A DNA stretch of 64,000 nucleotides, from contig OZ246979.1 in NCBI GenBank assembly GCA_965232545.1, forward strand, positions 4,623,521-4,687,520. The letters run 5' to 3'. The DNA comes from Candidatus Poribacteria bacterium (lineage in GTDB: Bacteria > Poribacteria > WGA-4E > WGA-3G). Shown piece by piece: positions 5,416-60,970 of the stretch (position 1 is its first letter; each line of letters starts with the position of its first letter). The notes under the pieces are model-generated. The model saw only the letters and a program-made list of their open reading frames with translations. It ran no database searches and had not been told where the DNA came from. The translations under genes were made by a program, and so were the position numbers.

Positions 5416-8400
5416 ATGGATTCACGAACCAAACGCTTTATTATTACTATCACCGTACTCGCGGTTATTGGCGGATTAGGTGCCATTTGGGTTAGTCTTT
5501 ATCCCGACTTCCTATGGTTTAAGGTGGTAGACTACTTCAGCGTTTACACTAAAATTCTCACAACAAAAATCTTCGTTGGTGTGATTGTTGGGGTGTGCTA
5601 TTTGGCAATCCTCCTGACGAACATCGCCCTGATTTATCGATTCACGCCAGCGCATCTGAGTCCTGCTTTTATGGGTGGTGCAGATTTCATGGGCGGTGCC
5701 ACAGACAACCCCGGTGATACGCGAAAACTGATTTATGGTGGACTTACACTACTCGCGGTCCTTTTTAGCGTCATGATGGGCTATGCCGCCAGTGATCGGT
5801 GGGAGGTCTATCTACGCTACACCAATGCCGAGAATCTCGCTTTCCGTGCCGCTACCCCTATTATTGTGGAAGAAAGCCTCAATTCTGCCGAGATTCCTGT
5901 CTCTCAACTCGAACTCCAAGCGAAAAATATAAGAGTCGGGGATCAGATAAACGTCCAGGTGGATGGAACAAATCAAGACGCGCGGGTTGAAGCAATTTTG
6001 GACCGCGGTGATATGGGGGCCATCCGTTTGAATACGCCTATTCAGATAGAACCCGGACAGAAGGCTTTTTTCACGTCTCCTGCGCGCGATCCTATCTTTG
6101 ATAAGGATGTCGCCTACTACGTCTTCAGGATGCCGGCAGAACGTTATGTTTGTGGGACGCTTTTCGGTATCTTTATGTTAGTGACGATATTTGCAGTCGT
6201 CGTCTACTTTTTTCACGGGTTAATCACGGGTGATACCAGCCAGTTTCGATTCCGTCCACCTTTCAACGTGAAAGCGCATTTGTTCACGCTTGTCGGTTTG
6301 ACACTCCTATTCCGAGCATGGAACTACCGCTTTGCTATGTTTGACCTGCTTTACACGACAAACGATGTTGTCCGTGGTGGTGGTGGATATGCCGCAATGA
6401 AAGCACGACTCCCTATATTGTACTTCTTGATTGGACTTACAATTCTGTGTGCTCTCATTTTCATCATTTCTATCTTCCTCCAACGCAACACCCTCGCTTT
6501 TGGTGGATTTGCTGTGTTTCTGATCGCGGGCTTTCTTGGACAAGTCTATCCGGTCGCTATACAAAGATGGCAGGTTGAACCCAGAAAACAGGTATTAGAG
6601 GCGGACTATATCAATTACAACATCACAGCGACACTCCAAGCGTATGGGTTGGCTGAGAACACTGTGACGGAAGAAGAATATCCGCTGACAGAACAACTCA
6701 GTTATGATGACATAAGAAGTCCCGAAAACGCTTCTGTTTTCAATAGTATTCGTCTCTGGGATTGGCGACCCTTGCGCAGAACTTTCCGCCAACTCCAAGA
6801 ATTGCGGACACAGTATGATTTCAACGATGTCGATATTGATCGCTATGTCGTTGATGGTGAAATTCGTCAGGTCATGCTCTCTGGACGAGAACTCAATATC
6901 AATGAGCTGCCTGCCGAGATCAGAAACGACTGGTATAAGCAGACCTATACCTACACGCACGGATACGGTGCCGTTGTGAGTCCCGTTAACGAAATTGAGA
7001 ACGGCAAACCTAACATGTATATTCAGGGATTGCCACCTATTGACTATAGTGAGCAGTGGCAGCACCGGTTTAGTGAAACACCGGGACCCCGTATCTATTA
7101 CGGTGAACGCACAGATCGCTACGTTATCGTGCATCCCGAACGGAGCCAAGGACTTGAGTTTGACTATCCGCAGGAGGGGCAACAATACGCCGAATATGCA
7201 TATCAAGGAAAGGGCGGCGTACAACTGAACTCTTTCTGGCGGAAAATGGTGTATATGCTTAAATTCGATAACGAAATTAACTTCGTGCTACCCGGTGAAA
7301 TTTCATCGGCAAGCCGAATCCTCTACGAACGGAATATCAAAAATCGGATCCAAAAAATCGCACCCTTCTTACGGTACGACGGGGATCCTTACATCATTCT
7401 CCATAATGGCAGATTGGTTTGGATGATTGATGCCTATACCATCACACATCGGTATCCTTATTCTGTTTCAATGCGAGAGTTCGTCAGCGAGAGAAGACGG
7501 CAGATCGCAAATGCACAGCGAGACAATGAACCGTGGGGGAACTACATCCGAAATTCTGTTAAAGTCGTTGTGGATGCTTACGATGGCACTGTCGATTTTT
7601 ACGTTATGGAACGAGAACAGGATCCGATCGCCGAATGTTACCGAAAGATTTTCCCCAGCCTGTTCAAGCCGTTTGAGGAGATGCCGGAAGAACTCAAGGC
7701 GCATATCCGGTACCCGACATCCATGTTCCTTATCCAAGCCCGTGTCTATCGGGATTATCACATGAAAGATCCGGTGACCTTTTACGCAGGGGAAGATAAA
7801 TGGGAGATCGGCAGAGAACTGTATGACAATACGGATGCCCAAACGCGACAGGCTTCGGCGCCTCCGCAACCCAGAAGTCCTTTTGCCCCGCAGCAAGTCC
7901 CCCAAAATTCCGGTGCAAATGGACAACCGGTTGAACCCTATTATGTGGTCATCAGACTACCCGGACAGGAACAATCGGAATTCATGTTGATGTTGCCTTT
8001 CACGCCGCTCAACAAACCTAATCTTACGGCTTGGCTCGCTGCCCGATGTGATTTGCCCCAATATGGGCAACTCCTCGTTTACCGATTCCCGAAAGGCAAG
8101 CAGATCGCGGGACCGATGCAGGTGGAGAACTTTATTAGCCAAGAACCGGAGATTTCACAGCAGATTAGTCTCTGGAATACGCAGGGGTCCCGCGTCTTAC
8201 GCGGAAACCTGTTGATTCTGCCGGTGAACAACTCGCTACTCTATGTTGAGCCTATCTATATACAATCCGAGGATGAAAAAACCGCTATTCCCGAATTAAG
8301 GCGGGTCGTCATCGGATATGGGAACGAAGTCGTATGGGGTGAAACGCTTGAGGAGGCACTCGTCAAGATGTTCGGACAGGGAACAAGGGGCCAGACCACC

Positions 8401-12622: not shown

Positions 12623-15400
12623 TTGAGAAAATTACAGATAACCATACTGATCTTGTTTTTAGGAGTTGCGTGGGTCATGCAAAGCAGTGCCGATCGGGTG
12701 CAACTCAACACGAGTGCCGCTGTCCTCCAAGACAATCTCGGTTCGAGTGTCGGTATGAGTGGTGATTATGCGGTAATAGGTGTTCCGAACGATGATACCG
12801 ACTTTGGCAGAGACACAGGTTCACTTCAAGTCTTTCTACGCACAGAAACCGGATGGGTTCAACATCAAAAACTGTTCGCCAGCGATGCCGAGCCCGGCGA
12901 CCGATTCGGTACGACGCTCGCGGTGAGTGGCGATTACATCGTTGCTGGTGCCCCAAGGAAAGATGGAGGCGGGAGAAACTCAGGTGCCGCTTATGTTTTT
13001 AGGCGAACGGGGACTGAATGGTTAGAGCAAGCCAGGCTTGTCGCACCTAATCAAACGCGTGGTGACTATTTCGGTATCTCGGTAGCGATTGATGGAGATA
13101 CCGTCCTCGTTGGTGCGCATCGTACGAACGAACCTTTGGCAGATTGTGGCTCCGTCTACGTTTTTGAGAGGAACGGGGAAATTTGGAATCAGACAACCAG
13201 ACTCATTGCCCCAGACCCAGATAGTTTCGCATACTTCGGCTTCTCCGTTGGAATTGATGCGGATACCGCTATCGTTGGTGCGATTCGGGAGGATGAAGCC
13301 GGAAATGATGCCGGTGCTGCTTATATTTTCGTCCGAAACCAATTCGGATGGACGCCTCAAGCGAAACTTATCGGAAACAACACGGAAGCGGAAGATAACT
13401 TTGGGTATGCAGTTGATGTTGATGGAGATTTTGCCATTGCGACCTCACCTAAGAACAGAGGTGGTGGCTCTGCTTACATCTATAAGCGCGAAGGGATCGA
13501 ATGGGAGCAAAAAAGGAACCGTGTCCGTTTTCGTATGATTCCGATTGATCCAGATGGCGCGTCCGCTTTCGGTGTTTCTGTTGATATTAAGGGGGAGACC
13601 GCTGTCATTGGTGCGACAGGGGGCAACGTCGGACAAGATATTGTCGGTGCCGCTTATGTCTTTACACAAAATGAGCCTCCATTTTGGAACCAACACACAA
13701 AGTTGGTCGCAAGCGATAGAGGTGCCGGTGACCAGCTCGGATTTGCTGTTGCGATCGGTGAGAACGAAGTGATCGCTGGTGCACCAAGGCATAACGCCGG
13801 TGGATTATCATCGGGGGCTGCATATATTTTTGAACAAAGAGAAGAAGCTTCGTGGGTAGAGAGTGGCAAGTTGAGTGATGGTGAAACCGCTTCAGAAGAT
13901 CAGTTCGGCGTATCTGTTGCGATAAGCGGGAACTTCGCTGTCTCTGGTGCCCAACAAGACGATGACATCGCACCGAACGCGGGCGCCGCGTACATCTTCG
14001 AGCGTACCGGTACTCTCTGGCTGCAGCGCACAAAACTTACCGCTGACAACGCAAATGCTGGGGATCTATTCGGGAATGCTGTTGCGATGGATGGCGCAAC
14101 GGTCCTTGTTGGCGCGCCCGGGGTGGATCAGGCAGGACCGGAATCTGGCGCAGCATACATTTTCGTACAGGTCGGCGAAGAGTGGATTCAACAGGCGAGG
14201 TTAGTCGGTGACGACATCGGAATCTTTGATCGGTTCGGGTCAGCCGTGGCAGTCCATGAAAATACCGCTATCGTCGGGGCACACGGGAAAGACGAGGGGG
14301 GTGTGGATACCGGTGCCGCTTATGTCTTTGTCCGGAATGGTGCCTCTTGGACGCAACAGGCGAAACTCACCCACCGAGGTGCTGTACCGGGAGATCTATT
14401 CGGTTTTGCTGTTTCTGTCTATGGCGATAATGCCATCATCGGTGCCCATCAGAGCGACGCAGCGGGACCAGATTCAGGCGCAGTCTATCTCTTTACACGT
14501 ACGGGAGGCACATGGACGCAAGACCTCCTGCTGATGCCGAATGATATTGGCATCGGTGATGAATTCGGCTACGCTGTCAATTTAACTAAAGGTATCGCTA
14601 TTATCGGTGCACCTAAGGAGGACCGAAGACTTGCCGATCTCGGAGCCGCTTATGTTTTTGTGGAGGCACGAGATGGTTGGGTACAACAGGCAAAGCTAAC
14701 CGCATCCGATGCCGAGACTGGAGATGAGTTCGGTTCAGCAGTCGCTATTCATGAAGATACCGCTATCGTCGGGGCATGGAAAGATAATCACCCGTTGTCG
14801 GATCCGGATGGAGATCCATCAGTACAGATTGACAGAGGTTCAGCTTACTCATTTTTGCTCGACGGATTATCTTGGGTAGAGAAACGCCGAATTGAGGCTG
14901 CCGGCACAAACCGATCCGACCTATTTGGGGCATCTGTTGGAATCAGAGGTGCTTTTGCTATCGTTGGTGCCGCAGGTAGCGATAATGCCGGGGATAACTC
15001 AGGATCCGCGTTTATCTATAACCCAATTGATCTCGGATTCCGATCTGCGGATGTTCCTTTCTCTGTGGATCCGACATCACATGCGCTCTCGATGCTCGGA
15101 TATATTAAACAGACGACGATTCTCCAGAATTATCCGAACCCGTTTAATCCAGAGACATGGTTTCCCTACGATTTGGCAGAGGAAGCAGAAGTTATTCTGA
15201 AAATCTACGATGTCCGTGGGGGGCTTGTACGCCAGTTGAATATTGGGCTACAGGAACCCGGCAGGTATCGGAGCCAAGAGAAAGCCGCTTATTGGGATGG
15301 GAAAGACCAGTATGGAACGAAAGTCGCAAGTGGTATCTATTTCTACACGTTTTCCGCTGGCGATTTCCAACGCACCCGCCGACTGGTGATTCTCAAGTAG
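12623..15400 (+). CDS. FG-GAP repeat secreted protein with T9SS C-terminal sorting domain
   Basis: Signal peptide. More than 12 FG-GAP-like repeats (DxFGxSVAIxGDxAxVGA…GAAYVF). C-terminal NYPNPFNPETWFPY…GIYFYTFSAGDFQRTRRLVILK matches the T9SS CTD (type A sorting). Confidence 0.7.
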   Translation: MRKLQITILILFLGVAWVMQSSADRVQLNTSAAVLQDNLGSSVGMSGDYAVIGVPNDDTDFGRDTGSLQVFLRTETGWVQHQKLFASDAEPGDRFGTTLAVSGDYIVAGAPRKDGGGRNSGAAYVFRRTGTEWLEQARLVAPNQTRGDYFGISVAIDGDTVLVGAHRTNEPLADCGSVYVFERNGEIWNQTTRLIAPDPDSFAYFGFSVGIDADTAIVGAIREDEAGNDAGAAYIFVRNQFGWTPQAKLIGNNTEAEDNFGYAVDVDGDFAIATSPKNRGGGSAYIYKREGIEWEQKRNRVRFRMIPIDPDGASAFGVSVDIKGETAVIGATGGNVGQDIVGAAYVFTQNEPPFWNQHTKLVASDRGAGDQLGFAVAIGENEVIAGAPRHNAGGLSSGAAYIFEQREEASWVESGKLSDGETASEDQFGVSVAISGNFAVSGAQQDDDIAPNAGAAYIFERTGTLWLQRTKLTADNANAGDLFGNAVAMDGATVLVGAPGVDQAGPESGAAYIFVQVGEEWIQQARLVGDDIGIFDRFGSAVAVHENTAIVGAHGKDEGGVDTGAAYVFVRNGASWTQQAKLTHRGAVPGDLFGFAVSVYGDNAIIGAHQSDAAGPDSGAVYLFTRTGGTWTQDLLLMPNDIGIGDEFGYAVNLTKGIAIIGAPKEDRRLADLGAAYVFVEARDGWVQQAKLTASDAETGDEFGSAVAIHEDTAIVGAWKDNHPLSDPDGDPSVQIDRGSAYSFLLDGLSWVEKRRIEAAGTNRSDLFGASVGIRGAFAIVGAAGSDNAGDNSGSAFIYNPIDLGFRSADVPFSVDPTSHALSMLGYIKQTTILQNYPNPFNPETWFPYDLAEEAEVILKIYDVRGGLVRQLNIGLQEPGRYRSQEKAAYWDGKDQYGTKVASGIYFYTFSAGDFQRTRRLVILK

Positions 15401-43092: not shown

Positions 43093-43232
43093 TATTTTAT
43101 AGTTATCAGTTTTAGGAGTTGTCAATTATCAATTATCAGTTTTAGGAGTTGTCAATTATCAGTTAAAGAGGACCCTGGTTAAACGAAAACCTCTTAACCG
43201 GCAACTGACGACCGACAACCGATAACCATAAA
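43093..43232. repeat. Largest composite palindromic 7-bp-repeat element
   Basis: (AGTTATC AGTTTTAGG AGTTGTC AATTATC) x2, then AAGAGG…CCTCTT hairpin, then CAACTGA-CGACCGA-CAACCGA-TAACC in the opposite orientation. Confidence 0.55.
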
Positions 43233-49479: not shown

Positions 49480-50499
49480 ATGAACAAACTTGAGACACGC
49501 CTACTGACCGGAATAATGCTACTCGCAATCGTTGGCATTTTGGGTACCGTCCTACCGGCATTAGGAAATTGGAGTGTTTTACAAGAACGTGATCCAGAAG
49601 TTCGGGATTACATGTCAATAGCTTTTACAAGCATGAGTACGGGGTGGGTCGTCGGTGCTGCATCGTTTGAAGACTTTGAAAATCCCGGCTTTATCGGATA
49701 TACCATAGATGGTGGTAAATCATGGCAAAAATCGGAAATCAAAATTCCTGCCGATTTAGCAGAAGTGTACTTCCTTGATGATAAACACGGTTGGGCTGTC
49801 GGTGCGAATGGAGCAATTGTCAGTACCAATAACGGTAGAGACTGGGAAATGCAAACCAGCAAGGTTGGCAACGGACTTAAAGGCATCTATTTTATTACTA
49901 AAGAGACCGGGTACGCAGTAGGAGAAAGCGACACTATCCTTTCTACAAAAAATGGCGGGCGCTCATGGAAGATTCTTCAAGGTGGGCAACTCGGTGCGAT
50001 TGGTGATGATGACGCGAATATGTACAATGCCATTCAATTTTTTGGGGAAGAGATCGGATGGATCGCCGGAGTCCGCGTGAGTCCGAGTACACAGGGACAA
50101 CACGCCTTGATTCAGAAAACGATGGATGGTGGACAGACTTGGGTCACACAACCGACTAACAGAGAGGACATCCTTGAAGACATCTTTTTCCTTGATGCGT
50201 CAATGGGTTGGGCTGTTGGTGAAAATGGTGTAATCCTTCATACCAGCGACGGCGGCGAATCATGGAAAGATCAAGTGAGTGGCACAGAAGAAACACTACG
50301 GAGTGTTGGGTTCGCAGATGAGGAGAACGGTTGGGCCGTTGGTGGCGACTTTGGGGTCGGTGCCATTCTGCGTACCAGTGATGGTGGTGAAAATTGGGAA
50401 CTTGAAGATTCCAGGGAAAAATTAGTCAAAGTTTTTGTGCTTGACGGACAAAATGTGTGGGTAGCGAGTTCCACGGGTGCTATAATGCAAGCAGAATAA
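49480..50499 (+). CDS. Ycf48-like / BNR-repeat beta-propeller protein
   Basis: N-terminal TM/signal region. Six or more DGG(K/R/Q/E)SW repeats (DGGKSW, NNGRDW, KNGGRSW, MDGGQTW, SDGGESW, SDGGENW). Confidence 0.55.
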   Translation: MNKLETRLLTGIMLLAIVGILGTVLPALGNWSVLQERDPEVRDYMSIAFTSMSTGWVVGAASFEDFENPGFIGYTIDGGKSWQKSEIKIPADLAEVYFLDDKHGWAVGANGAIVSTNNGRDWEMQTSKVGNGLKGIYFITKETGYAVGESDTILSTKNGGRSWKILQGGQLGAIGDDDANMYNAIQFFGEEIGWIAGVRVSPSTQGQHALIQKTMDGGQTWVTQPTNREDILEDIFFLDASMGWAVGENGVILHTSDGGESWKDQVSGTEETLRSVGFADEENGWAVGGDFGVGAILRTSDGGENWELEDSREKLVKVFVLDGQNVWVASSTGAIMQAE

Positions 50500-50500
50500 A

Positions 50501-50608
50501 TAGCCGTCAGCGGTCGGCTTGCAGCCATCAGTGACCCTTGTGATAGGTGAAAACGTTCGCAGTACCTACGACGGTTACTGACAACTGACAGCCGATAGCC
50601 GATAGCCA
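50501..50608. repeat. Composite palindromic 7-bp-repeat element
   Basis: CCGTCAG-CGGTCGG…CCATCAG … spacer … ACTGACA-ACTGACA-GCCGATA-GCCGATA. Confidence 0.5.
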
Positions 50609-51799
50609 ATGCGCGGAGGTATAATTTTGGAAATATCCACATTCGCAACGCGGATGAGTCGATTAGGCACGGAATCCGCATTTGAAGTCTTAGCGAAAGC
50701 CAAACAGTTAGAGGCACAGGGCAAAGATATCATCCATCTGGAAATAGGACAGCCGGATTTTCCGACACCGATTAATATTATTGAGGCAGCGTACAAAGCA
50801 ATGAAGGACGGGCATACCGGCTACTGCCCATCTGCTGGTGTGCCGGAGTTTCGAGAGGTCGTCGCACAACATATAACTGAGACACGTGGTGTTACCATAC
50901 ACCCTGACGAAGTTACAGTGACACCCGGAGCGAAACCTATTATTTTCTTCACTATTTTGGCACTCATTGATGATGGTGATGAGGTCATCTATCCCGAACC
51001 CGGTTTCCCCGTCTACGAATCTGTTATCGACTTCATCGGCGGAAATGCCGTACCGCTACCCCTTCGCGAGGAGGTAGGCTTCCGATTCCGGCTTGAAGAT
51101 CTTGAAGCGGCAATCTCTGATCGGACGAAATTACTTATCCTCAACTCACCTCAGAATCCTACAGGTGGTACGCTCACCCTTCAAGACCTTGAAGCAATCG
51201 CCGAACTCGCACAGAAACACAATTTTTATGTGTTGACAGATGAAGTCTATTCACGCATCCTCTACGAAGGTGAACACCATAGCGTTCTCAGTCTGCCCGG
51301 TATGAAGGAACGAACAATCCTGATCGAAGGGCATTCTAAAACCTATGCAATGACAGGATGGCGGTTAGGCTATGGTATTGCTCCCCAAGAAATCGCTGAT
51401 AAAATCACGCAGTTAACTATTAACTCTAATTCCTGTACTGCCACCTTCACACAAATCGCTGGGATAGAGGCGCTGACAGGACCACAAGTCTCTGTTACCC
51501 AAATGGTTTCAGAATTTCAGAAACGACGCAACGCAATAGTAGATGGACTGAATGCAATTGAAGGCGTCAGCTGCATCAAACCGCTCGGTGCCTTCTATGT
51601 GTTTCCTAACGTTACGCAACTACCACTTTCATGTGAACCACTCGCCGACTATCTCATGGATGAAGCGGATGTTGCCCTGTTGCCTGGTACCTCTTTTGGC
51701 AAATATGGTGATGGATATCTCCGTCTCTCGTATGCTAATTCGTTAGATAATATCCAAGAGGCATTAGGCAGAATGGAAACTGCAATCTCGAAGTTGTAG
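50609..51799 (+). CDS. Class I/II PLP-dependent aminotransferase (aspartate aminotransferase-like)
   Basis: GQPDFPTP…GHSKTYAMTGWRLGY (PLP Lys). Start could instead be TTG 50627 just after TATAAT 50619-24. Confidence 0.8.
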   Translation: MRGGIILEISTFATRMSRLGTESAFEVLAKAKQLEAQGKDIIHLEIGQPDFPTPINIIEAAYKAMKDGHTGYCPSAGVPEFREVVAQHITETRGVTIHPDEVTVTPGAKPIIFFTILALIDDGDEVIYPEPGFPVYESVIDFIGGNAVPLPLREEVGFRFRLEDLEAAISDRTKLLILNSPQNPTGGTLTLQDLEAIAELAQKHNFYVLTDEVYSRILYEGEHHSVLSLPGMKERTILIEGHSKTYAMTGWRLGYGIAPQEIADKITQLTINSNSCTATFTQIAGIEALTGPQVSVTQMVSEFQKRRNAIVDGLNAIEGVSCIKPLGAFYVFPNVTQLPLSCEPLADYLMDEADVALLPGTSFGKYGDGYLRLSYANSLDNIQEALGRMETAISKL

Positions 51800-51852
51800 C
51801 CAATAGTTATCAGTTATTGGAGGAACACACGTCAAACTCGAAACGTCCGGTG

Positions 51853-51876
51853 TTCCTCCGCAAGGTATAATTAAAA
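51853..51876 (+). promoter_or_regulatory. Upstream module copy before thrB
   Basis: TTCCTCCGCAAGGTATAATTAAAA-ATG, preceded by inverted repeat GGAGGAACAC…GTGTTCCTCC. Confidence 0.5.
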
Positions 51877-52794
51877 ATGTCTCCTACTTTTGACCGAAAA
51901 GCTACCGCGCGGATCCCAGCAAGCACAACGAATCTGGGACCCGGATTCGATGTCTTAGGGCTCGCTCTCCAGCTCTATAGCACAGTTACGTTGGAACCGT
52001 CTGAAACCGACACCAAAGTTATTGTGAGCGGCGTAGATGCCGATAAAATCCCAAGTACGCCGGCGCATGTCGCGTTTCAAGCGGTGGAGCTTGTTTTTCA
52101 TCGAAGCGGAGCGGAACGTCCGAAGGGCTTTAAATTACAGATCGAAAATGGGATACCTGCGATTCGAGGTCTCGGCGGCAGTGGAACAGCGATTCTTGGT
52201 GGCTTGCTCACTGCAAACGCACTCTGTGGTACTCCATTTTCTAACCCAGAACTCCTCAACTTTGCGACTGAACTTGAAGGGCATCCGGATAACGTTGCCG
52301 CCTCATTGTATGGTGGACTCGTCGTTTCCGCACAGGAGGATGCTCAGGTTCATACTGTTCGATTAGAATGTCCGTCCCTCCTTTCGATTGTACTGGCAAT
52401 TCCCGATTTCCCACTGTCAACAGAACAGGCACGAGGGGTGCTACCAACGTCAGTGGGTTTCGCAGATGCAATCTACAATACAAGCCGGAGCACACTGCTA
52501 ATCGCCAGCATTGCCACGAGGCAATTTGAAATGTTGCGTGTTGCAATGAAAGATAGGTTGCATCAGCCTTATCGGACTTCGCTGATTCCAGGATTTGATG
52601 ATGTGGCGGAAGCCGCGACCACCGCTGGAGCACTTAGCGTGGCATTGAGTGGAGCAGGACCCACTGTCGCAGCCTATTGTCTTGAGCACACGGAACAGGT
52701 TGCTGAGAAGATGCAAGTTGCCTTCAAAAAGCACCAGATTGTGGCGGATATTAAAATTTTGAAGCCAGATGCTCGCGGAGCAACCGTTTTTTAA
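51877..52794 (+). CDS. thrB: Homoserine kinase
   Basis: GHMP kinase motifs IPASTTNLGPGFDVLGLAL and GLGGSGTA. ATG abuts CCGCAAGGTATAATTAAAA. Confidence 0.8.
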   Translation: MSPTFDRKATARIPASTTNLGPGFDVLGLALQLYSTVTLEPSETDTKVIVSGVDADKIPSTPAHVAFQAVELVFHRSGAERPKGFKLQIENGIPAIRGLGGSGTAILGGLLTANALCGTPFSNPELLNFATELEGHPDNVAASLYGGLVVSAQEDAQVHTVRLECPSLLSIVLAIPDFPLSTEQARGVLPTSVGFADAIYNTSRSTLLIASIATRQFEMLRVAMKDRLHQPYRTSLIPGFDDVAEAATTAGALSVALSGAGPTVAAYCLEHTEQVAEKMQVAFKKHQIVADIKILKPDARGATVF

Positions 52795-52816
52795 ACTATT
52801 AAATCTGGGCACCACT

Positions 52817-52917
52817 TTTAATAGTTGTCAGTTTTCAGTCGTCGGTTAAGAGGTTTCGTTTAACAATACCCTCTTGTAACCGATAGCCGATAACCGACAA
52901 CCGATAACCAGTAAAAA
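52817..52917. repeat. Composite palindromic 7-bp-repeat element with the same architecture as 43093-43232
   Basis: TAGTTGTCAGTTTTCAGTCGTCGGTT - AAGAGG…CCTCTT - GTAACCGATAGCCGATAACCGACAACCGATAACC, abutting the ATPase-homolog ATG. Confidence 0.55.
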
Positions 52918-52918
52918 C

Positions 52919-55798
52919 ATGTCAAATTTTCATGCGGAAAACATTGCATCAATACTAAATAAATTCGACTCCAACATGGAGCAGGGACTGAGTGCCGAAG
53001 CCTTTCAGAGAGCGAAAGCACAGCATGGTAAGAACGAAGTGTCCCCAGAGGAAGACGCTTTTCCTTTTAAAGCGTTTCTGAAATCGTTGCTCACGTGGCG
53101 TGTGATTGTTTTGGGAATCGGGACGGTCATCCTTGGAGTTTCCTTAGTCAACGGTACGAGTAACGTTACGGTCCATACAGTAGGCGTTGTCGGGGCAGTT
53201 TTGGTTATTCATGCCGTATCCGCATACATGATGGAACATCGCATTCGCAGTCGTGATACTAACCATAATAAACTCATGGTGCATAGTGTCAAGGTTATTC
53301 GACAAGGGAAATTAGATGAATGCGCGCCAGAGGACATTGTACCTGGGGACCTACTCCCTTTTAGTGCAGGAGACTATGTGCCCGCTGATGCCAGGATCAT
53401 TGAATCAGAAGGTCTTATGATTGACGAGTCCGTCCTCTTTGGCACCGAGGAACCTGTGCATAAGGTTGGGACGGATATTCAAGATAGTACTTTACCGCCT
53501 CAAGAACAGAAAAACATGGCGTTTGGCGGGACGTATGTTGTAGCAGGACATGGATTTGCAATTGTTGTTCAGACAGGAAGACAGTTGGAAATATGGAAAC
53601 AACGTCCGGATGCGCACCCAACGTTCGCTGCGAAGACCCGCGCTGAAATTGAGACGAGAGGTTTATATACCGCTCTAAAAGTTGTAGGTATGGTTGTGGG
53701 AGGTGTGGCTGTCGCAATCGCGTGGTGGTTTGAATATCAGAATCATGCTACCGATTGGCAATCTCTAATCCATTTAGGAATGATATTTGTTATCGCATCT
53801 GCCCCCCAAGATGTGATTCAGCTGCTCCGTTTATTCTTTTCTAAACACGCCCAAAGATTGTTGGAAAAAGGGGTTGTACTAAGAAATTCACGTAGCCTTG
53901 AAAAACTAAGTCGTATTACCACTTTTTTTGCGAATGAAAACGGGCTTTCCACCACACGTTCCCTAACAATTTCAAATATTTTTGTTGATGAACAACTGAT
54001 TGATGGTAAAACATGGAACGCATGGTTAAATTCTCTTAAAGAGCTTACCCCTGCAAAGCGGCAAGAAGTGATTGAGACAATGTCACCTGGTGGAAAAATA
54101 CCACAGGGTGCCCCCCACTTAATGTTTACGGCAGGACTTGGTACTTCTGATGGGCAGAATACCGACGGTGCCGACCCCCTTAACACACGGTCAGCTTCAG
54201 AAGCTATGTCTTCCGAAATGGGACCGTCCCCTCAGATTGCCATCCAACAGGATGTGAAAAAACTCGGCTACCAACTCGAAGGTGTGAAGGCTCGACTTCC
54301 GTTAGTGAACACGTATCCCTTTACGCGAAACTACCCCTATCAAATGCAAGTATTCGAGTCAGCCCCAGAGGATTATCTTAATATCATCTTTGGAGATGCT
54401 CGAACAGTACTTGACACCTGCGGTTATGTACTCATTAATGGCGAAGCTGCACCCTTATCAGATGACAGATACGAAATGTATCATGAAATCATAGATTATC
54501 TGATGAATACCAAGGCGCAGGTTTATGGCGTAGCCTTTCATTCCTCTGATGTTATTCTGAAACCGCAGGAAATGGAATACAATCCCATTTTTTTAGGGTT
54601 TATCAGTTTTTCTGTCAACAATGATGAACGGACGAAGGCAGTCCTGAAGTCCAGCCTTGATACTGGACTTAAAATTATTCTCATCACTGAAAACGAGGAA
54701 CAAGAAACAGTCGATCTCGCGAAGGATCTTGGGCTTATCCACAACCGAAAAGCAGTGGTGTCGGCGGCGGAACTTGACGCTGTCTCGCGTGAACAACTCG
54801 ATGGTGAAACAGCAAAGTGGACTGCTTATTCGCAACCAACGTGGCATCAACGTCGGAATATCGTCCTCAGTTTAAAACGTCAGGGACATGCAGTAGGATT
54901 TCTGGGTCAAAGTAGAAAAGATCTCCGAGCAATGACCGTTGCGGATATTACGCTTGCGAATAGAATTGATGCATCACATGTTGTGCAAGCCGCAGCCGAT
55001 GGACTCATTAACAGCGGAGGCTTCCAAGCTATCAGAGATGCACTGCTTCATGCTCGTGAGGCGTATCATAACGCCGCCGGTTTTCTACGGTGGAATTTCT
55101 CTTGTACACTCTCCCTACTCCTCACACTGACTTTCGGGACGGTGCTACACTATCTCTATAAGATGCCTATGCCGTTGACGTTAACACAGATGATTTGGAC
55201 CCAATTTCTCCTGACCCTATTACCGTCATTGGTTATAGGCACGGAACGGATATTTGCTGATGCCAATGATACCAATCGGCATCACCGTCCAACCCTATTT
55301 TCAGGATCGCGCTTCCTTTCAAAAACGACAGGTGTAGACCTCGTTTGCCGCGCTGTGACTGTTAGCCTGATGACAATCATTCCGTTCTTCTTTATTTTAT
55401 GGCGTTCGCCTGGGTTGTCAGACACATTCGGTGTTTCGACATTGATGACAGATGTCCTTTCAATTGGAGATGTGGGGGATCCGAATGCTCTGGATATCGC
55501 AATCGCGCGAACGGCAGCCTGTACTACGCTTATTTTCACTCAACTATCTACATGTTGGCAAGCTTTACGCTATCCATGGGAACCCCTCGTTCAGAGGGTA
55601 CTCGCGAATTCTCGTCTCATCATTATTTCGCTTGTGATTATAGCACTCCATTTGACAACGCTCTATGTCGAACCTGTGGCACAATTTTTTGGAATGGTGC
55701 GCCTCAAATGGGAATGGCAATGGACACTCCTGTTTAGTCTAACATTACTGCTATTACCACTGAATTTGGCAATAGGTTCGCGTCCGGATGAGAATTAA
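52919..55798 (+). CDS. P-type ATPase homolog with all catalytic motifs degenerate (putative pseudoenzyme)
   Basis: Cation_ATPase_N-like start (LSAEAFQRAKAQHGKNEV) and 8-10 TM helices. Signature positions read FGTEEP for TGES, PQDV for PEGL, ANENGLSTT for DKTGTLT, ITEN for TGD, and LGQSRKD for GDGVND. Confidence 0.6.
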   Translation: MSNFHAENIASILNKFDSNMEQGLSAEAFQRAKAQHGKNEVSPEEDAFPFKAFLKSLLTWRVIVLGIGTVILGVSLVNGTSNVTVHTVGVVGAVLVIHAVSAYMMEHRIRSRDTNHNKLMVHSVKVIRQGKLDECAPEDIVPGDLLPFSAGDYVPADARIIESEGLMIDESVLFGTEEPVHKVGTDIQDSTLPPQEQKNMAFGGTYVVAGHGFAIVVQTGRQLEIWKQRPDAHPTFAAKTRAEIETRGLYTALKVVGMVVGGVAVAIAWWFEYQNHATDWQSLIHLGMIFVIASAPQDVIQLLRLFFSKHAQRLLEKGVVLRNSRSLEKLSRITTFFANENGLSTTRSLTISNIFVDEQLIDGKTWNAWLNSLKELTPAKRQEVIETMSPGGKIPQGAPHLMFTAGLGTSDGQNTDGADPLNTRSASEAMSSEMGPSPQIAIQQDVKKLGYQLEGVKARLPLVNTYPFTRNYPYQMQVFESAPEDYLNIIFGDARTVLDTCGYVLINGEAAPLSDDRYEMYHEIIDYLMNTKAQVYGVAFHSSDVILKPQEMEYNPIFLGFISFSVNNDERTKAVLKSSLDTGLKIILITENEEQETVDLAKDLGLIHNRKAVVSAAELDAVSREQLDGETAKWTAYSQPTWHQRRNIVLSLKRQGHAVGFLGQSRKDLRAMTVADITLANRIDASHVVQAAADGLINSGGFQAIRDALLHAREAYHNAAGFLRWNFSCTLSLLLTLTFGTVLHYLYKMPMPLTLTQMIWTQFLLTLLPSLVIGTERIFADANDTNRHHRPTLFSGSRFLSKTTGVDLVCRAVTVSLMTIIPFFFILWRSPGLSDTFGVSTLMTDVLSIGDVGDPNALDIAIARTAACTTLIFTQLSTCWQALRYPWEPLVQRVLANSRLIIISLVIIALHLTTLYVEPVAQFFGMVRLKWEWQWTLLFSLTLLLLPLNLAIGSRPDEN

Positions 55799-55878
55799 AA
55801 AACGCGTAACTTGAAACGGGGTGGAGTGTCGATTTGCTAACTTCCGTAACCGAACCCCAAAGAACATTAAAAATCCTG

Positions 55879-57933
55879 CTACACCCAAAACCCGTAGGTC
55901 GGGATACCCGCGATAATCCCTAAGATTGTCCAGAGACTCCCCACTGTAAATTCTCCCAAGATTAACCCTAAGAAAAAGGGGGCTATCTTGCGGTGCCGAA
56001 TGACGCCGCCGTACTGAAGAATAAGCCATTTGATTAACCAACTCATGAAGAGGCAACTCCACGTAACGTTCATACCCCAGCTTGTAGAGATAGCGAACCC
56101 TGCGGGGTGAAATGGCCACCAAACGAATCGCATCCGAAAGAACATCAGCACTGTTGTCAGCAGAAACCCAATGCCCATGAATCCACTTTCAGGGATAAGT
56201 GTCTCTTCTGGGGCTTGCAACCATCCCGCAAGGCGACGATACGGCTCTATCCCAAAAGCACTCAAGGAGGGCCAGTACGCACGCACCTCCATGCCTAATC
56301 GATAACCTCGGTCTATTAATGCCCAAAATCCTGCTAATGATCCCAAAATAGTTGCCAGTGTTAAGGCGAAAATGATACGATTCATCTTCATGTTGGTCCG
56401 TTCCATGATCTTGAAACCTTCTAACTGATGCGGCATCGGGTGACTCCGATGTGCCCGATTAATGAACCAAAACATAGAGAACATAATGAGGTTGCTTCTC
56501 CCCAATCGACGTGTTCCAACAGTCCGAGTCAGAATTTCATCAGGACCGGAATAGTGCAGATCATGCACAGGTGTCCCCAGTTCGGCGCGCATCCGGGTTA
56601 TGGCGATCGAAATCATATAATAGATAACGAAAAATGCGAACATCACCCAAAGTTCAGCACCGCCATAGTAGCAGAAAAGCACAAGGAATACCATTACCGC
56701 AATAAGACCGAGCGTCGCCCCGCGATAGGACATCGGTTCCTGCCGGGTGTCCCCCGAAACCCTATCCTGTAGGAGGGGTTTGTAACCCCGATTCCTCAAT
56801 CCAAAAACGGTTTTCGCTACATCCAATAGATGTTTGCGACTTGCCCAGATAGCTAAAACGCACAGCGCAAGGTAACCACCTGATGCTTGCTCGTTCATGT
56901 AAGGAAAACGGGGTAGACTCCGTAGTCCAAGGGCGGCACCGAGAACCCGCATAAACCGCCAATACCAAAAGAAAAACCAGCATGAGAACGAAAGGTCAAG
57001 CGGGATGAAGAAACCGAGCCCGATTGCAAACGGGTAGAGTGAAAATGGGATCCGCCCCATAGCGTTCCAAGGGCTCTCTGTAAAGATTTGGAAACTTCGC
57101 ACGCGTGTCCGTAGTTCAGGTAAAATCGGATACAGAAAGTTAACACCATTCCACAGTGCGAGCGCACCAGCAATCCCAAAACCGAGCCACATCAATTTAT
57201 TCTGGAATAGGCGATTCTGTGGTGTCTCTGTCAATTGAAGGGGGAGTTGAATTATCGGGTAGCTTAATTTCTCATGTTCGATCCATTGTTTACGAACAAT
57301 TATATTGATGCAAAGCATACCGAAAATCAACATAGTAATGAAGGCGGTCCACCAGAGTACGGGCGTTGCCCAGCCGAGCAGTGTTTCAACTGTGTAGAGA
57401 GGTAACTCACCCTCATAATAACCGTATAAGAGGGTTGTGTTGCTGACGGTGAGCCACTTTGGCAGGAAAGGAACAAATAACTGTTGCCATTCATTTTCCG
57501 GAGTCACAAAGCGGAAGGCATGCCCTAACATCGGCACCAGAATCTCGAGCATATCGTGCCCAGTAATTCCCGAAGCGATGGAAAGCATTAGGTAAACAAC
57601 GACTAACTCGCTTTGTGCTAATGCCAAACTGGGGACAAAACGGCGTAATAGGGAGTTTACGCCGATAATCATGAACAGGCTGAAGATCACATTGAAAAAG
57701 AGGGAAATGGTCACAGGATGACCTGAATACCGAATAACCTCCATCTCAATAACCCAGTAGCAGTTAATCGGTATGAGAATAACAGCAATCAGAATAGATT
57801 TGAGTGTGACACCGTGGGCAGGGATTCGTGATGATGTTAGCGAAGCGGAAGTTTCAAATTTTTTAATTATTCCTTGCGGTTCGTTGAGGCAGGTTTGATG
57901 AATGAAGCGCCTTTTCGTAGAACCGCCCTCCAC
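55879..57933 (-). CDS. Large polytopic membrane protein of unknown function
   Basis: 684-aa ORF with at least 14 hydrophobic helices. The upstream-module sequence lies inside the annotated N-terminus (NEPQGIIKKFETS), so the true start is probably further downstream and remains uncertain. Confidence 0.45.
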   Translation of the reverse strand: MEGGSTKRRFIHQTCLNEPQGIIKKFETSASLTSSRIPAHGVTLKSILIAVILIPINCYWVIEMEVIRYSGHPVTISLFFNVIFSLFMIIGVNSLLRRFVPSLALAQSELVVVYLMLSIASGITGHDMLEILVPMLGHAFRFVTPENEWQQLFVPFLPKWLTVSNTTLLYGYYEGELPLYTVETLLGWATPVLWWTAFITMLIFGMLCINIIVRKQWIEHEKLSYPIIQLPLQLTETPQNRLFQNKLMWLGFGIAGALALWNGVNFLYPILPELRTRVRSFQIFTESPWNAMGRIPFSLYPFAIGLGFFIPLDLSFSCWFFFWYWRFMRVLGAALGLRSLPRFPYMNEQASGGYLALCVLAIWASRKHLLDVAKTVFGLRNRGYKPLLQDRVSGDTRQEPMSYRGATLGLIAVMVFLVLFCYYGGAELWVMFAFFVIYYMISIAITRMRAELGTPVHDLHYSGPDEILTRTVGTRRLGRSNLIMFSMFWFINRAHRSHPMPHQLEGFKIMERTNMKMNRIIFALTLATILGSLAGFWALIDRGYRLGMEVRAYWPSLSAFGIEPYRRLAGWLQAPEETLIPESGFMGIGFLLTTVLMFFRMRFVWWPFHPAGFAISTSWGMNVTWSCLFMSWLIKWLILQYGGVIRHRKIAPFFLGLILGEFTVGSLWTILGIIAGIPTYGFWV
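56768..56799. repeat. REP-like hairpin repeat, GTAGGAG family
   Basis: TGTAGGAGGGGTTTGTAACCCCGATTCCTC. Confidence 0.55.
57860..57884 (-). promoter_or_regulatory. Upstream module copy inside/at the 5' end of the 684-aa membrane protein ORF
   Basis: rc reads CAACGAACCGCAAGGAATAATTAAAAAATTTG. No ATG follows directly. Confidence 0.4.
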
Positions 57934-58365
57934 TTCGTTACGGGCTGCGCGTCAGTGATTAAGAATTTGCACATAGATAGACTGCAAGTTTGATAGTAGA
58001 TGGATACGTATTATTTTGGCGATCGCTACAAACGCCCGACCGCTATCTGTGAATATTCCTCAATCAATTTATCACACTTTTTTCAACAAGTCAACTTTAA
58101 AATCTCTTATACTTCTTAAGCCATCAATCGTATCGGCATCGTACTGAATAGGGCCAGTGTCGATTTTTTTTCAAGAATCCTTTCGGTTATCAGGTACAAA
58201 GAGTGTTAGGCGTATCATATCCGTCTTTTAACTGACTGCTGATTGCTAACGACTGACGGCTAATTACTGACTTTTTTAAATAACGTTTCCATGTTATAAT
58301 GGATGTCGCAATATGGCATTGCAGGTTGTGCCTAAATTGCATCTGTAACAACTTAGGATACAAAT

Positions 58366-59169
58366 ATGAAGCCATTCCACTATATTAAAAATCGAGTTGA
58401 GCGATTTTTTTACAATGCTTATCAGCGGCGTTTGGAATCCGAAGCCAATGCCTGGAAAATCCCACGCCATATTGGTGTAATTTTAGATGGGAACCGTCGG
58501 TATGCGAAAGCCAGTGGATTTGGAGATATCATCGAAGGACACCACGAGGGGGCAAACAAACTTGAAGAGGTGCTCCATTGGTGCGACGAACTCGGCGTTG
58601 AAATTTTCTCAATCTGGATTTTCTCCCTTGATAATTTCAAACGCGCGGCACATGAAGTGGAAGGAATTCTCGGACTTATTGAAAGGAAAATGCGGGAGCT
58701 CGTTACTATTGAGGGACTCCATGCTAACCAGATTAAGGTGCGCGCGATGGGGCAGATAGGGCTGTTACCACCCAGTCTGCAAGAAGCGATTCGGGAAGCG
58801 GAAGAAGCAACAAAACATTACGACAAGTTTATCTTAAATGTCGCTGTCGCTTATGGGGGGCGAGAGGAAATCGTTGACGCCTTTCGCGGACACCTAAAAG
58901 TCGAGAGTGAGAGTGGTAAACCTGTCCACCAGATTGCAGACGAACTCACGGTGGATAAGATTACACCTTATCTTTACACCTCAAACCTTCCGGATCCTGA
59001 GTTAATCATTCGTACCAGTGGTGAGGTACGGTTATCCGGGTTTTTGCTTTGGCAGAGTGTTTACTCGGAATTCTATTTCTGCGATACTTATTGGCCCTCA
59101 TTTCGGAAGATTGACTTTCTTCGTGCTTTGCGTGCTTATAGCCAGCGAAAACGGCGATTTGGAACATGA
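58366..59169 (+). CDS. uppS: Isoprenyl transferase (UppS family cis-prenyltransferase)
   Basis: PRHIGVILDGNRRYA, FSLDNFKR and IRTSGEVRLSGFLLWQS motifs of UPP synthase. Confidence 0.75.
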   Translation: MKPFHYIKNRVERFFYNAYQRRLESEANAWKIPRHIGVILDGNRRYAKASGFGDIIEGHHEGANKLEEVLHWCDELGVEIFSIWIFSLDNFKRAAHEVEGILGLIERKMRELVTIEGLHANQIKVRAMGQIGLLPPSLQEAIREAEEATKHYDKFILNVAVAYGGREEIVDAFRGHLKVESESGKPVHQIADELTVDKITPYLYTSNLPDPELIIRTSGEVRLSGFLLWQSVYSEFYFCDTYWPSFRKIDFLRALRAYSQRKRRFGT

Positions 59170-59183
59170 AAAGGAGTAAATGT

Positions 59184-59951
59184 ATGAGATTTGGGGTTTG
59201 TACAGGCTTAGAGAATGTCAATCGGCTCGCAGAAGTTGGATATGACTACATTGAATTAGGCGTGCGTCCGGGATTGATGCCCGAGGCGGATGAGGCGGAA
59301 TTCCAGAAAATTCGTGAACAGGTAGCGAACGCGCCCTTAAAGCCGGAGTCTTACGCTGGCTTTATTCCGGGGGACTTGCGGGTCGTAGGCGACACCGTGG
59401 ACTTTCCACGTTTATCTCGTTATGTAGAGACTGCATGTCGTAGAGGCAGTGAAATTGGGGGTGAAGTTATCGTCTACGGCAGCAGCGGTTCGCGGAGTAT
59501 AGAAGAAGGCTATTCGCGCGAGCGGGCATTGGCGCAAATTGCTGAGTTCCTCGATATGGCGGCGGATCATGCCGAAGCGCACAACATGACGATTGTCATC
59601 GAACCCATTTGTTGGCGAGAGGGAAACATCCTTCGGACCGTCGCAGATGGACTCGCTATGGCAAAACGCGTGAATCGTCCGGGTATCAAGGCGTTGGCAG
59701 ACCTCTATCACATCCATCAGGAAGAAGAACCGATGCAAAACACCATCGACGCTGCTGAGTGGCTCGCGCATGTTCACATTGCGGAACCTGTCAAGCGTTC
59801 CTATCCGGGAAACGACGATTTCGATTTCACAGATTTCTTCGCGGCACTCCAAAAAGCGGGCTATGACGGTCGCGTCTCCTGCGAGTGCAAGTTTGACAAT
59901 TTTGACGAGGATGTTGAGGTAGCTTTGGAAACCATGAAAACGTATGTCTAA
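59184..59951 (+). CDS. Sugar phosphate isomerase/epimerase (xylose isomerase-like TIM barrel)
   Basis: SD AAAAGGAG 7 nt upstream of ATG 59184. IEL…HVHIAEP metal-site-like residues typical of the AP_endonuc_2 fold. Confidence 0.65.
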   Translation: MRFGVCTGLENVNRLAEVGYDYIELGVRPGLMPEADEAEFQKIREQVANAPLKPESYAGFIPGDLRVVGDTVDFPRLSRYVETACRRGSEIGGEVIVYGSSGSRSIEEGYSRERALAQIAEFLDMAADHAEAHNMTIVIEPICWREGNILRTVADGLAMAKRVNRPGIKALADLYHIHQEEEPMQNTIDAAEWLAHVHIAEPVKRSYPGNDDFDFTDFFAALQKAGYDGRVSCECKFDNFDEDVEVALETMKTYV

Positions 59952-59977
59952 CATATTTTTAACGTAGGGGCAGCCCC

Positions 59978-60970
59978 TTGTGGCTGCCCTCCAGTTTCTT
60001 CCACGCTTTTAGGAGGTGGAGCCTTATCCTTACACGCGAACAAGGTAGAGTCATCCGAGCGCGGACAGGATTTTATGATGTCCAACATGATGATATTATC
60101 CTGCGATGCACGCTCCGTGGCACACTCAAACGGAGAAACCGATCTGAAACCGGACGCAGACTGTATGCCGACCCAGTTGCTGTCGGCGATTGGGTCATCT
60201 TCACGCAACTTGATATGGAAGAGGGTGTGATAGAGGATATTCTGCCTCGCCGGACAAAGTTCTCGCGGCAATACGCCGGAAGGCACGAGGACATTGAGCA
60301 GGTTATCGTCGCGAATGCCCATCAAATCGTAGCCGTTGTCTCTACGCTGATGCCACCCCTTAACTTTCGGACACTCGATAGGTTTCTTATCTTGGCAGAG
60401 GCTGGCGATATGGAAGCGGTGGTATGTCTCAACAAGATGGACTTAGTGGATGAAGCCCAACGAACAGAACTCACAGCGACGTTTGCTGTTTATGAGAAAT
60501 TAGGTTACCAGGTCATCTATACCAGTATCAATGTTCCTGAGAGTCTGGACGCACTCCGAAATGCATTAAAGGATAAATTTAGTGTTATTGTTGGCGCGTC
60601 GGGTGTCGGCAAATCCAGCCTGCTGAACGCACTCCAGCCAAGTTTAGACTTGCGCATTGGTGAAGTTGGTATCAGAACTCAGAAGGGACGACATACAACA
60701 ACACTTGTCGAACGATTTCCCTTAGATATCGGCGGCGAGGTTGCCGACACACCCGGTATACGGGAAGTTGGGTTGTGGGGTGTGGATACGGAAAACCTTG
60801 AGTACTATTTCCCAGAAATGGAACCGTATCTCGGCACCTGTAAATACAACGACTGTGCCCATGTTACGGAGCCCGATTGCACTATTCAGGATGCCGTTGA
60901 AGCGGGGGATATACATGCAGAACGGTATCGGAGTTATGTCGTGCTGCGGACAGAAGGGACAGAGGAGTAG
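59978..60970 (+). CDS. rsgA: Ribosome small-subunit-dependent GTPase A
   Basis: Circularly permuted GTPase (G4 NKMDLV, G1 GASGVGKSSLLNAL, GRHTTT). C-terminal zinc finger CKYNDCAHVTEPDC. The start is uncertain because TTG 59978 lies inside a hairpin. Confidence 0.8.
   Translation: MWLPSSFFHAFRRWSLILTREQGRVIRARTGFYDVQHDDIILRCTLRGTLKRRNRSETGRRLYADPVAVGDWVIFTQLDMEEGVIEDILPRRTKFSRQYAGRHEDIEQVIVANAHQIVAVVSTLMPPLNFRTLDRFLILAEAGDMEAVVCLNKMDLVDEAQRTELTATFAVYEKLGYQVIYTSINVPESLDALRNALKDKFSVIVGASGVGKSSLLNALQPSLDLRIGEVGIRTQKGRHTTTLVERFPLDIGGEVADTPGIREVGLWGVDTENLEYYFPEMEPYLGTCKYNDCAHVTEPDCTIQDAVEAGDIHAERYRSYVVLRTEGTEE

Follow-up and report, generated by a model that had tools for sequence, protein, structure and literature searches.

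P-type ATPases are defined by an aspartyl-phosphate cycle. Here we describe a bacterial gene of this superfamily, located at positions 52919-55798 (+) of a 64,000-nucleotide stretch of a Candidatus Poribacteria bacterium genome (contig OZ246979.1 of assembly GCA_965232545.1, positions 4,623,521 to 4,687,520; hereafter the window, meaning the whole stretch that was analysed). Its product resembles a P2-type cation pump from end to end, and each of its catalytic signatures is replaced, so that we refer to it as the pseudo-pump. We hold it reasonably probable, judging from aligned residues, that this is a vertically inherited pseudoenzyme which has kept the whole pump fold, has no catalytic cycle or classical cation binding, and serves a non-catalytic function, most likely a regulatory or scaffolding one.

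The best sequence matches of the protein are P2A pumps (PMR1/SPCA1, LMCA1 and SERCA), with which it shares the fold, the domain order and 10 transmembrane (TM) helices, as well as the structural motifs of the actuator (A) domain and the proline of TM4. Unlike these pumps, it replaces TGES, DKTGT, TGD, GDGVND, KGAPE, DPPR and all acidic Ca2+-site residues, scores far below all equivalog cutoffs and shows a shifted pattern of constraint. By analogy, the closest functional precedents are eukaryotic, namely TMEM94 and the P4GC modules. For human TMEM94/ERMA, a structural study saw the proposed phosphorylation site empty of nucleotide and detected neither Mg2+ binding nor ATPase activity (PMC12134183), whereas another group presents the same protein as an active Mg2+ ATPase (PMC13322241). 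TMEM94/ERMA is similar to the Poribacteria protein in having 10 TM helices, A-, P- and N-like cytoplasmic domains, no TGES and a pump status that is in doubt. However, it is a much larger, eukaryotic protein for which our comparison detected no close sequence relationship, and it retains a candidate Asp (D417) where the Poribacteria protein has Asn.

In the P4-ATPase modules of alveolate and stramenopile guanylate cyclases (P4GC), the Asp of DKTGT and the Glu of LDGET are altered and the module is kept in Cryptosporidium, P4GC-beta, gregarines and Tetrahymena, and these retained degenerate modules suggest that their role is to support some function other than pumping (PMC13466520); P4GC-alpha cannot do without the Asp (PMC7858053). 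A retained module with degenerate motifs is common to both cases, but that of P4GC is eukaryotic, belongs to the P4 (flippase) class and is joined to a cyclase, whereas the Poribacteria protein is stand-alone, P2-type and bacterial. Pseudoenzymes in general, pseudokinases for example, likewise combine missing catalytic residues with conservation of the homolog under purifying selection. We found no literature report of a bacterial P-type pseudo-ATPase, with the limit that the FUPA families of Chan et al. 2010 could cover a similar protein. A 2023 overview of the superfamily (PMC10654040) covers uncharacterised prokaryotic families and is silent on conserved, catalytically degenerate bacterial members.

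Pump architecture and replaced residues

The gene and its parts are as follows (window coordinates and strand; residue numbers of pumps follow SERCA1a).

52919-55798 (+): gene for the degenerate P2-type ATPase homolog (pseudo-pump), defined by its open reading frame (ORF), Pfam/NCBIfam, PDB search, AlphaFold2/Foldseek, and the ratio of nonsynonymous to synonymous substitution rates (dN/dS)
52931-53131 (+): Cation_ATPase_N-like N-terminal segment, amino acids (aa) 5-71 (PF00690, 2e-8)
53279-53638 (+): A domain, aa 121-240 (40% identity between lineages; dN/dS 0.14)
53438-53449 (+): FGTE at the TGES site (T181F, E183T, S184E), dephosphorylation Glu gone (alignments, translation)
53804-53815 (+): PQDV at the PEGL site of TM4, helix-breaking Pro retained, ion-binding Glu gone (alignments, model)
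53933-53953 (+): NENGLST at the DKTGTLT site, phospho-acceptor Asp to Asn and Lys to Glu, with NENGL at aa 339-343 (alignments, translation)
54005-54586 (+): N-domain-like region, aa 363-556, lacking F487, K515 and R560 and among the least conserved regions (alignments)
54149-54223 (+): insert of the N domain, aa 411-435, DGQNTDGADPLNTRSASEAMSSEMG, of low confidence and probably disordered (predicted local distance difference test, pLDDT, <50; translation)
54686-54694 (+): TEN at the TGD site, ITEN against ITGD (alignments, translation)
54905-54922 (+): GQSRKD at the GDGVND site, D703 gone and D707 retained (alignments, translation)
55019-55753 (+): TM5-TM10, aa 701-945, ion-site residues neutralised, the most constrained part of the gene (alignments, model, dN/dS 0.105)

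The ORF starts with ATG and encodes 959 aa. Besides the N-terminal segment, Pfam recognised E1-E2_ATPase at aa 119-315 (3e-24) and Cation_ATPase_C at aa 750-947 (2e-13) in this protein; a match to the Cation_ATPase N-domain fell below threshold, and the PF00702 hydrolase domain gave no match. The top NCBIfam model was the PMR1-type Ca2+-ATPase TIGR01522 (210 bits, cutoff 798), and the equivalog TIGR01116 reached 132 bits (cutoff 703), so that neither was passed; the generic superfamily model TIGR01494 was the only one passed, and barely (65.6 bits, cutoff 62.3). Searching the PDB by sequence returned SPCA1 first (8iww, 6.7e-45), then the Listeria Ca2+-ATPase, and then Na,K-, H,K- and SERCA pumps.

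An AlphaFold2 model built from 107 sequences (query clade, sister clades and canonical pumps) had a pLDDT of 83.8 and a pTM of 0.75. With a shallow alignment of 35 close homologs the pLDDT was 46.9 and that model was not used; it was the addition of the sister clades and canonical pumps that raised confidence. The model shows A, P and N domains and 10 TM helices, with TM4 broken at aa 294-298 at the retained Pro. Foldseek matched it to P2-type pumps in the PDB at 17-19% identity, with about 1000 columns aligned and TM-scores of 0.72-0.77. E1-like states of three pumps scored best (0.74-0.77), namely Na,K-ATPase (8jfz), phospholamban-bound SERCA1a (4y3u) and SPCA1 (8iwp); the predicted conformation is not to be equated with a physiological state. 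All parts of the superfamily architecture are present (A, P and N domains, a TM bundle and a proline-kinked TM4), and by sequence and fold (NCBIfam, PDB, Foldseek) the closest canonical relatives are P2 pumps of the PMR1/SPCA1/LMCA1 type. These matches point to descent of the gene from a P2A (PMR1/SPCA/LMCA1-like) calcium pump.

The first-pass annotation, which was made from the nucleotide sequence, had described a P-type architecture with about 10 TM helices and an intact ORF of 959 aa, in which every catalytic signature is mutated. Pfam, the AlphaFold2 model and Foldseek bear out the architecture. Its list of motifs was also correct: a HMMER alignment to SPCA1 and three independent MAFFT alignments agree that the variant motifs sit at the canonical positions, with coordinates checked by translation, and the profile searches find the E1-E2 domain and not PF00702. 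The residue letters of the SERCA1a sequence used for numbering fit the literature numbering at 39/39 numbered positions, and the SERCA-numbered conclusions also hold with 26 canonical pumps in a separate alignment.

In the A domain, the structural motifs PGD, GD.VPADAR and DES are retained, and in the printed HMMER alignment LFGTE stands against LTGET of SPCA1. At the ATP sites of the N domain, F487 is aligned with G/S, K515 (of KGAPE) with F or a gap, and R560 with Y; the DPPR motif is replaced as well, and K684 has become Arg. Every acidic residue of both Ca2+ sites is replaced in the window protein (E309 to Q297, E771 to L733, D800 to T766 and E908 to Q875), and so are the coordinating N768 (T730), N796 (Q762) and T799 (L765). 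The protein therefore fails every catalytic mark of membership, namely the DKTGT Asp, the TGES Glu, HAD motifs II-IV (TGD, K684, GDGxND) and the ATP residues of the N domain, as well as the equivalog scores and Ca2+-coordinating residues that mark a P2A pump, and the gene should not be filed as a Ca2+-ATPase. Public databases label its relatives 'cation-transporting P-type ATPase', 'cation transporting ATPase C-terminal domain-containing protein' or 'Ca2+-transporting ATPase'. Judged from the alignments, these losses are far beyond chance, as more than 200 homologs carry the same replacements, and the protein probably no longer runs an ATP-driven phosphorylation/dephosphorylation cycle nor binds cations at the classical sites.

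Family-wide conservation and selection

A word-indexed search recovered a query clade of more than 120 clusters at 63-98% identity, whose titled members are Candidatus Poribacteria. An exhaustive search of 1.84 billion representatives added graded relatives at 57, 48, 37, 34, 29 and 26% identity, and canonical motifs are missing in all members of this series; below it lies a plateau of canonical pumps at about 25% identity (best E = 7.5e-59). Starting from the 34% member, about 90 further clusters were found, which form sister clades with the typical signatures VFGTTT, IPEGI, V[D/N]EVGNFM, MFGDAE, ITDRD and WGKSPLDL. A scan of one genome per GTDB species gave 77 loci, one per genome, all given titles being Candidatus or uncultured Poribacteria, and the next matches after these were ordinary archaeal pumps at 26-27%. 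The family is apparently single-copy per genome.

Beyond this phylum-level family, group B (P0127-P0130, P0158) scored 684-702 bits to the Poribacteria family and at most 615 bits to any real pump. One of its members, P0129 (GCA_024278235.1), is 24% identical to the query and lies 7 bp after thrB. Because P0129 sits in the same block of BNR protein, aminotransferase and thrB as the query (block identities of 40%, 69% and 47%, respectively), it is a positional ortholog from a deeper lineage.

Other degenerate full-length P-type homologs were seen among the top 150 representatives: group C (P0147, P0182, P0185, P0245, P0257), with FDPxGVIT, LTGISD and xGRQLYDI; group D (P0243, P0269), with [ST]NK[KT]G[IV][LM]T, in which Asp is replaced by Asn; and P0193, with SSKQGVLT. 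As canonical motifs are missing in 19 of the 143 full-length sequences of that alignment (query plus representatives), degenerate pumps may be recurrent in bacteria.

Residue states were counted in the 219 members, using a neighbour-joining tree rooted on four canonical pumps and Fitch parsimony for switches. At the D351 (phospho-Asp) site, Asn occurs in 138 members, Asp in 74, Glu in 4 and other residues in 3, with at least 12 changes on the tree, while the K352 site is Glu in 211/219. The TGES Glu (E183), Asp at D703, Glu at E771 and Asp at D800 are each found in 0/219 members. Other sites are held: Asp at D707 in 218/219, an acidic residue (Glu or Asp) at the G626 site in 215/219, and Arg (132) or Lys (85) at the K684 site; Glu at E309 is retained in 78/219. 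Within the 121 members of the query clade, the replacements themselves are nearly fixed (F174 in 121, E177 in 119, N339 in 119, E340 in 119, G342 in 120, E591 in 121 and R645 in 121), F661-L662-G663 together with D668, R670, A671 and M672 is present in 121/121, and the polar T730, Q762, T766 and Q875 at the ion sites are conserved. Both major subgroups share the family-specific residues F174, Q197, R304, S331, E340, W366, P640, Q644, G660-F661 and C868, and also R884/W887/E888 in the cytoplasmic TM8-9 loop; F174, E340, E/D591, R/K645 and D668 are newly conserved in the family. Such counts indicate that the catalytic pocket has been remodelled around [N/D]339-E340, [E/D]591, [R/K]645 and D668 rather than changed at random.

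These counts bear on whether the protein could be an active pump or phosphatase with a variant motif, that is, an uncharacterised P-type subfamily, which we consider quite improbable. Sister clades retain D351, T625, K684, D707 and PEGI, D707 is present in 218/219 and K/R684 in 217/219 members, and one group claims Mg2+ ATPase activity for TMEM94/ERMA, which also lacks TGES (PMC13322241). However, the nucleophile is Asn in 119/121 query-clade members and K352 is Glu, the TGES Glu and D703 occur in no family member, F487, K515, R560 and DPPR are gone, the query has no Pfam hydrolase domain and only 210 bits against the PMR1 cutoff of 798, and constraint is lowest in the P and N domains, the reverse of real pumps. 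Moreover, Asp and Asn at the D351 site have switched at least 12 times, so that the carboxylate appears dispensable, and these repeated swaps between close relatives are, on the residue evidence, the strongest single argument against phosphate acceptance at this site. Residual non-canonical catalysis is conceivable, mainly in the Asp-retaining sister clades.

Selection on the gene was estimated by the Nei-Gojobori method against the 98%-identical and 87%-identical orthologs, giving dN/dS of 0.17 and 0.16, respectively. By domain the values range over 0.10-0.24 (TM5-10 0.105, TM3-4 0.12, A 0.14, N 0.18, P 0.20-0.24), and those of the neighbouring genes (aminotransferase, thrB, DUF6785) are 0.03-0.13. 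The frame is open over 907-973 aa in 83 of 86 related loci, and the remaining 3 are cut by contig ends. The pseudo-pump is always the fastest-evolving protein of its neighbourhood: in L047 its identity to the query is 43%, while DUF6785 is 79%, thrB 67%, the aminotransferase 85% and UppS 84% identical, and in L009 it is 34% identical, compared with 65% for thrB and 83% for the aminotransferase. This high rate, together with a dN/dS of 0.16 against 0.03-0.13 for neighbours, is what would be expected of a relic heading for loss, a recently dead pump gene that has not yet acquired stop codons. We give that explanation scarcely any probability, since the gene is intact in 83/86 loci over 24-98% identity, every domain has a dN/dS far under 1, the replacement residues are conserved and the fold is predicted confidently; dN/dS, family residue counts and ORF intactness already refute it. 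The first-pass view that this is not a decaying pseudogene has thus held. At least 83 Poribacteria or related genomes carry the gene intact, and it is under purifying selection across a phylum and beyond, which, with its catalytic residues gone, is the pattern of a pseudoenzyme.

The distribution of constraint over the protein was compared between real pumps and between lineages of the pseudo-pump family, with the following identities by region.

P1: 64% real pumps, 35% family
TM5-6: 60.5% real pumps, 38% family
P2: 59% real pumps, 30% family
A domain: 50% real pumps, 40% family
TM1-2: 49% real pumps, 21% family
TM3-4: 49% real pumps, 24.5% family
N domain: 38% real pumps, 22% family
TM7-10: 29% real pumps, 35% family

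In real pumps, P1, TM5-6 and P2 are the most conserved and TM7-10 the least. In the family, the A domain is the best-conserved region, followed by TM5-6, while TM1-2, the N domain and TM3-4 have collapsed and TM7-10 lies above the level of real pumps. Constraint has shifted from the P and N domains and TM1-4 to the A domain, TM5-6 and TM7-10.

A different reading of the protein is that an uncharged solute, or one of another charge, crosses the TM domain as through a passive channel or facilitator, with the headpiece as a gate only. It would account for TM5-10 being the most constrained part (dN/dS 0.105), for TM7-10 being better conserved than in real pumps, for the polar T730, Q762, T766 and Q875 within the query clade and for the retained TM4 Pro kink, and the Foldseek matches include a Na,K-ATPase in which palytoxin opens a cation channel (9vj0). 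We nevertheless find it unlikely: the ion-site residues vary between lineages (Q/H, T/N/S, L/Q), the helices lining the entry path (TM1-4) rank with the least conserved parts (21-25%), and a simple channel leaves purifying selection on about 500 cytoplasmic residues unexplained.

Gene neighbourhood and upstream region

The genes and repeats around the pseudo-pump gene are as follows.

49480-52794 (+): upstream same-strand block, which accompanies the gene in most lineages (Pfam/NCBIfam)
49480-50499 (+): Ycf48-like BNR protein
50609-51799 (+): aspartate-aminotransferase-like protein
51877-52794 (+): homoserine kinase ThrB (TIGR00191, 277 bits, cutoff 168)
52880-52907 (+): tandem repeat of four CCGA[TC]A[AG] heptamers, 11 nt upstream of the ATG
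50592-50605 (+), 43212-43225 (+) and 23224-23204 (-): further heptamer runs
55879-57933 (-): 684-aa DUF6785 + DUF6784 membrane protein, convergent neighbour (Pfam 3.9e-164 and 2e-34)
L056 8748-9038, L057 8727-9059 and L058 8739-8969: DUF6785 remnants in related loci

The upstream block precedes the gene in most loci (among them L009, L026, L029, L032-L035, L037, L039-L069, L071-L083, L085 and the deep ortholog L090), and positional orthology behind it reaches down to 24% identity; in an exceptional subclade the gene is placed after rplU-rpmA instead. A functional link to threonine or aspartate metabolism is not put forward, given gaps of 7 to about 260 bp (estimated from coordinates) and the housekeeping nature of the block, and the adjacency to thrB and the aminotransferase may be inherited gene order. 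Between window positions 49480-60970 and loci L001-L003, a long collinear block of housekeeping character is kept though the pseudo-pump proteins are only 63-76% identical; its order is S49 peptidase, PCMT methyltransferase, two unknown genes, Ycf48-like BNR protein, aminotransferase, thrB, pseudo-pump, DUF6785 (opposite strand), uppS, a TIM-barrel protein and rsgA. It is curious that a non-photosynthetic phylum has a Ycf48-like BNR protein. In L002, where the region is otherwise collinear, a DDE transposase gene (DDE_Tnp_1, 13033-14214) separates DUF6785 from uppS.

The first-pass annotation had also suggested the 684-aa membrane protein as a partner, so that the pseudo-pump and DUF6785/DUF6784 would form a two-component membrane system. 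Only in the window and in clades that share at least 41% identity with the query do the two genes lie side by side. Comparison of gene order across the family makes the partnership very improbable. The genes converge tail to tail and hence do not belong to one operon, and their adjacency in close relatives is part of the collinearity of the whole region. DUF6785 is missing beside the gene in all lineages of at most 35% identity (L007-L046) and in L090; in distant lineages its place is taken by EF-G, a histidine kinase, an aminotransferase or a Zn-dependent alcohol dehydrogenase. In the 42% clade, it has been deleted at the locus in L052, L054, L055 and L059 and cut to a remnant of about 80-110 aa in L056-L058, with the pseudo-pump ORF intact in all of these, which suggests that DUF6785 has decayed or been relocated in some lineages. 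The rates are also far apart (79% for DUF6785 against 43% for the pseudo-pump in L047). Synteny, the check that the first-pass annotation had itself named for this idea, has largely refuted the partnership already.

What had been taken for a normal intergenic element upstream of the gene proved to be a strain-specific tandem repeat. Runs of 2-4 heptamers lie 3-11 nt before an ATG at three forward-strand sites (the pseudo-pump gene, the aminotransferase gene and a gene at about 43237), and the window holds 7 heptamer matches where 0.02 would be expected by chance. Upstream of the pseudo-pump gene, however, they occur in 1 of 81 related loci, the 98%-identical L004, and a conserved regulatory element was rejected because 80 of the 81 loci lack them. 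Promoter and terminator scans of the region gave no informative signal, with 21 promoter-like sites (14.4 expected) and, as terminator, a weak 5-bp hairpin only, at the end of thrB. No obvious Shine-Dalgarno sequence was found in the 20 nt upstream of the gene in the window, L001, L002, L006 and L064, where A-rich leaders such as TAAAAAAATATG and AATTAAAAAATG were observed. In L003, the called thrB (7082-8038) and the called pseudo-pump start (8001) overlap by 38 nt; tblastn suggests a true start near 8052, the called one being probably too early.

Possible role and significance

If the gene encodes a pseudoenzyme, as we favour, the protein would act without the Post-Albers cycle, as a membrane-anchored regulator, scaffold or ligand sensor. 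The conserved surfaces of the A domain and TM5-10 may dock a partner or hold a small ligand or cation, the remodelled acidic pocket might join in the binding of the ligand or cation, and binding would be relayed through the pump-like arrangement of domains. In P2 pumps, accessory subunits and regulators bind at TM7-10 and nearby helices (Na,K-ATPase with beta/FXYD, SERCA with phospholamban). Since TM7-10 is where regulators bind, its conservation here would favour a protein-binding role.

Several points weigh against this interpretation. The loss of activity is read from the sequence, and the scaffold or sensor role from where conservation lies; the dispute over TMEM94/ERMA (PMC12134183 versus PMC13322241) shows that degenerate motifs do not settle activity. 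In the sister clades, 71% of the sampled members keep Asp at the D351 site, T625, K684, D707 and PEGI are also present, and some members carry a weak precomputed match to PF00702. Finally, the pseudo-pump gene outpaces all its neighbours in rate, so that constraint on it is moderate.

A more far-reaching reading, possible though on the doubtful side, joins these elements: the family would be the first bacterial P-type 'pseudo-ATPase' family, in which a Ca-pump scaffold was repurposed before the Poribacteria radiation into a membrane signalling or regulatory protein that is not driven by ATP, with the acidic pocket ([N/D]-E ... [E/D] ... [R/K] ... D) sensing a cytosolic cation or ligand and relaying it through the A domain and TM5-10 to a partner. 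If this is true, groups C and D would make the conversion of pumps into pseudo-pumps recurrent in bacteria.

The finding would mildly surprise a specialist in P-type ATPases, and its practical importance is moderate. It offers a bacterial counterpart to the disputed eukaryotic TMEM94 and to the P4GC modules. For annotation, it corrects a systematic mislabelling: the Ca2+- or cation-transporting ATPase labels now attached to these proteins would inflate the predicted ion-transport capacity of Poribacteria, which are prominent sponge symbionts. For the superfamily, a stand-alone, full-length and phylum-wide dead pump would be a natural experiment on which parts of the fold are useful without catalysis.

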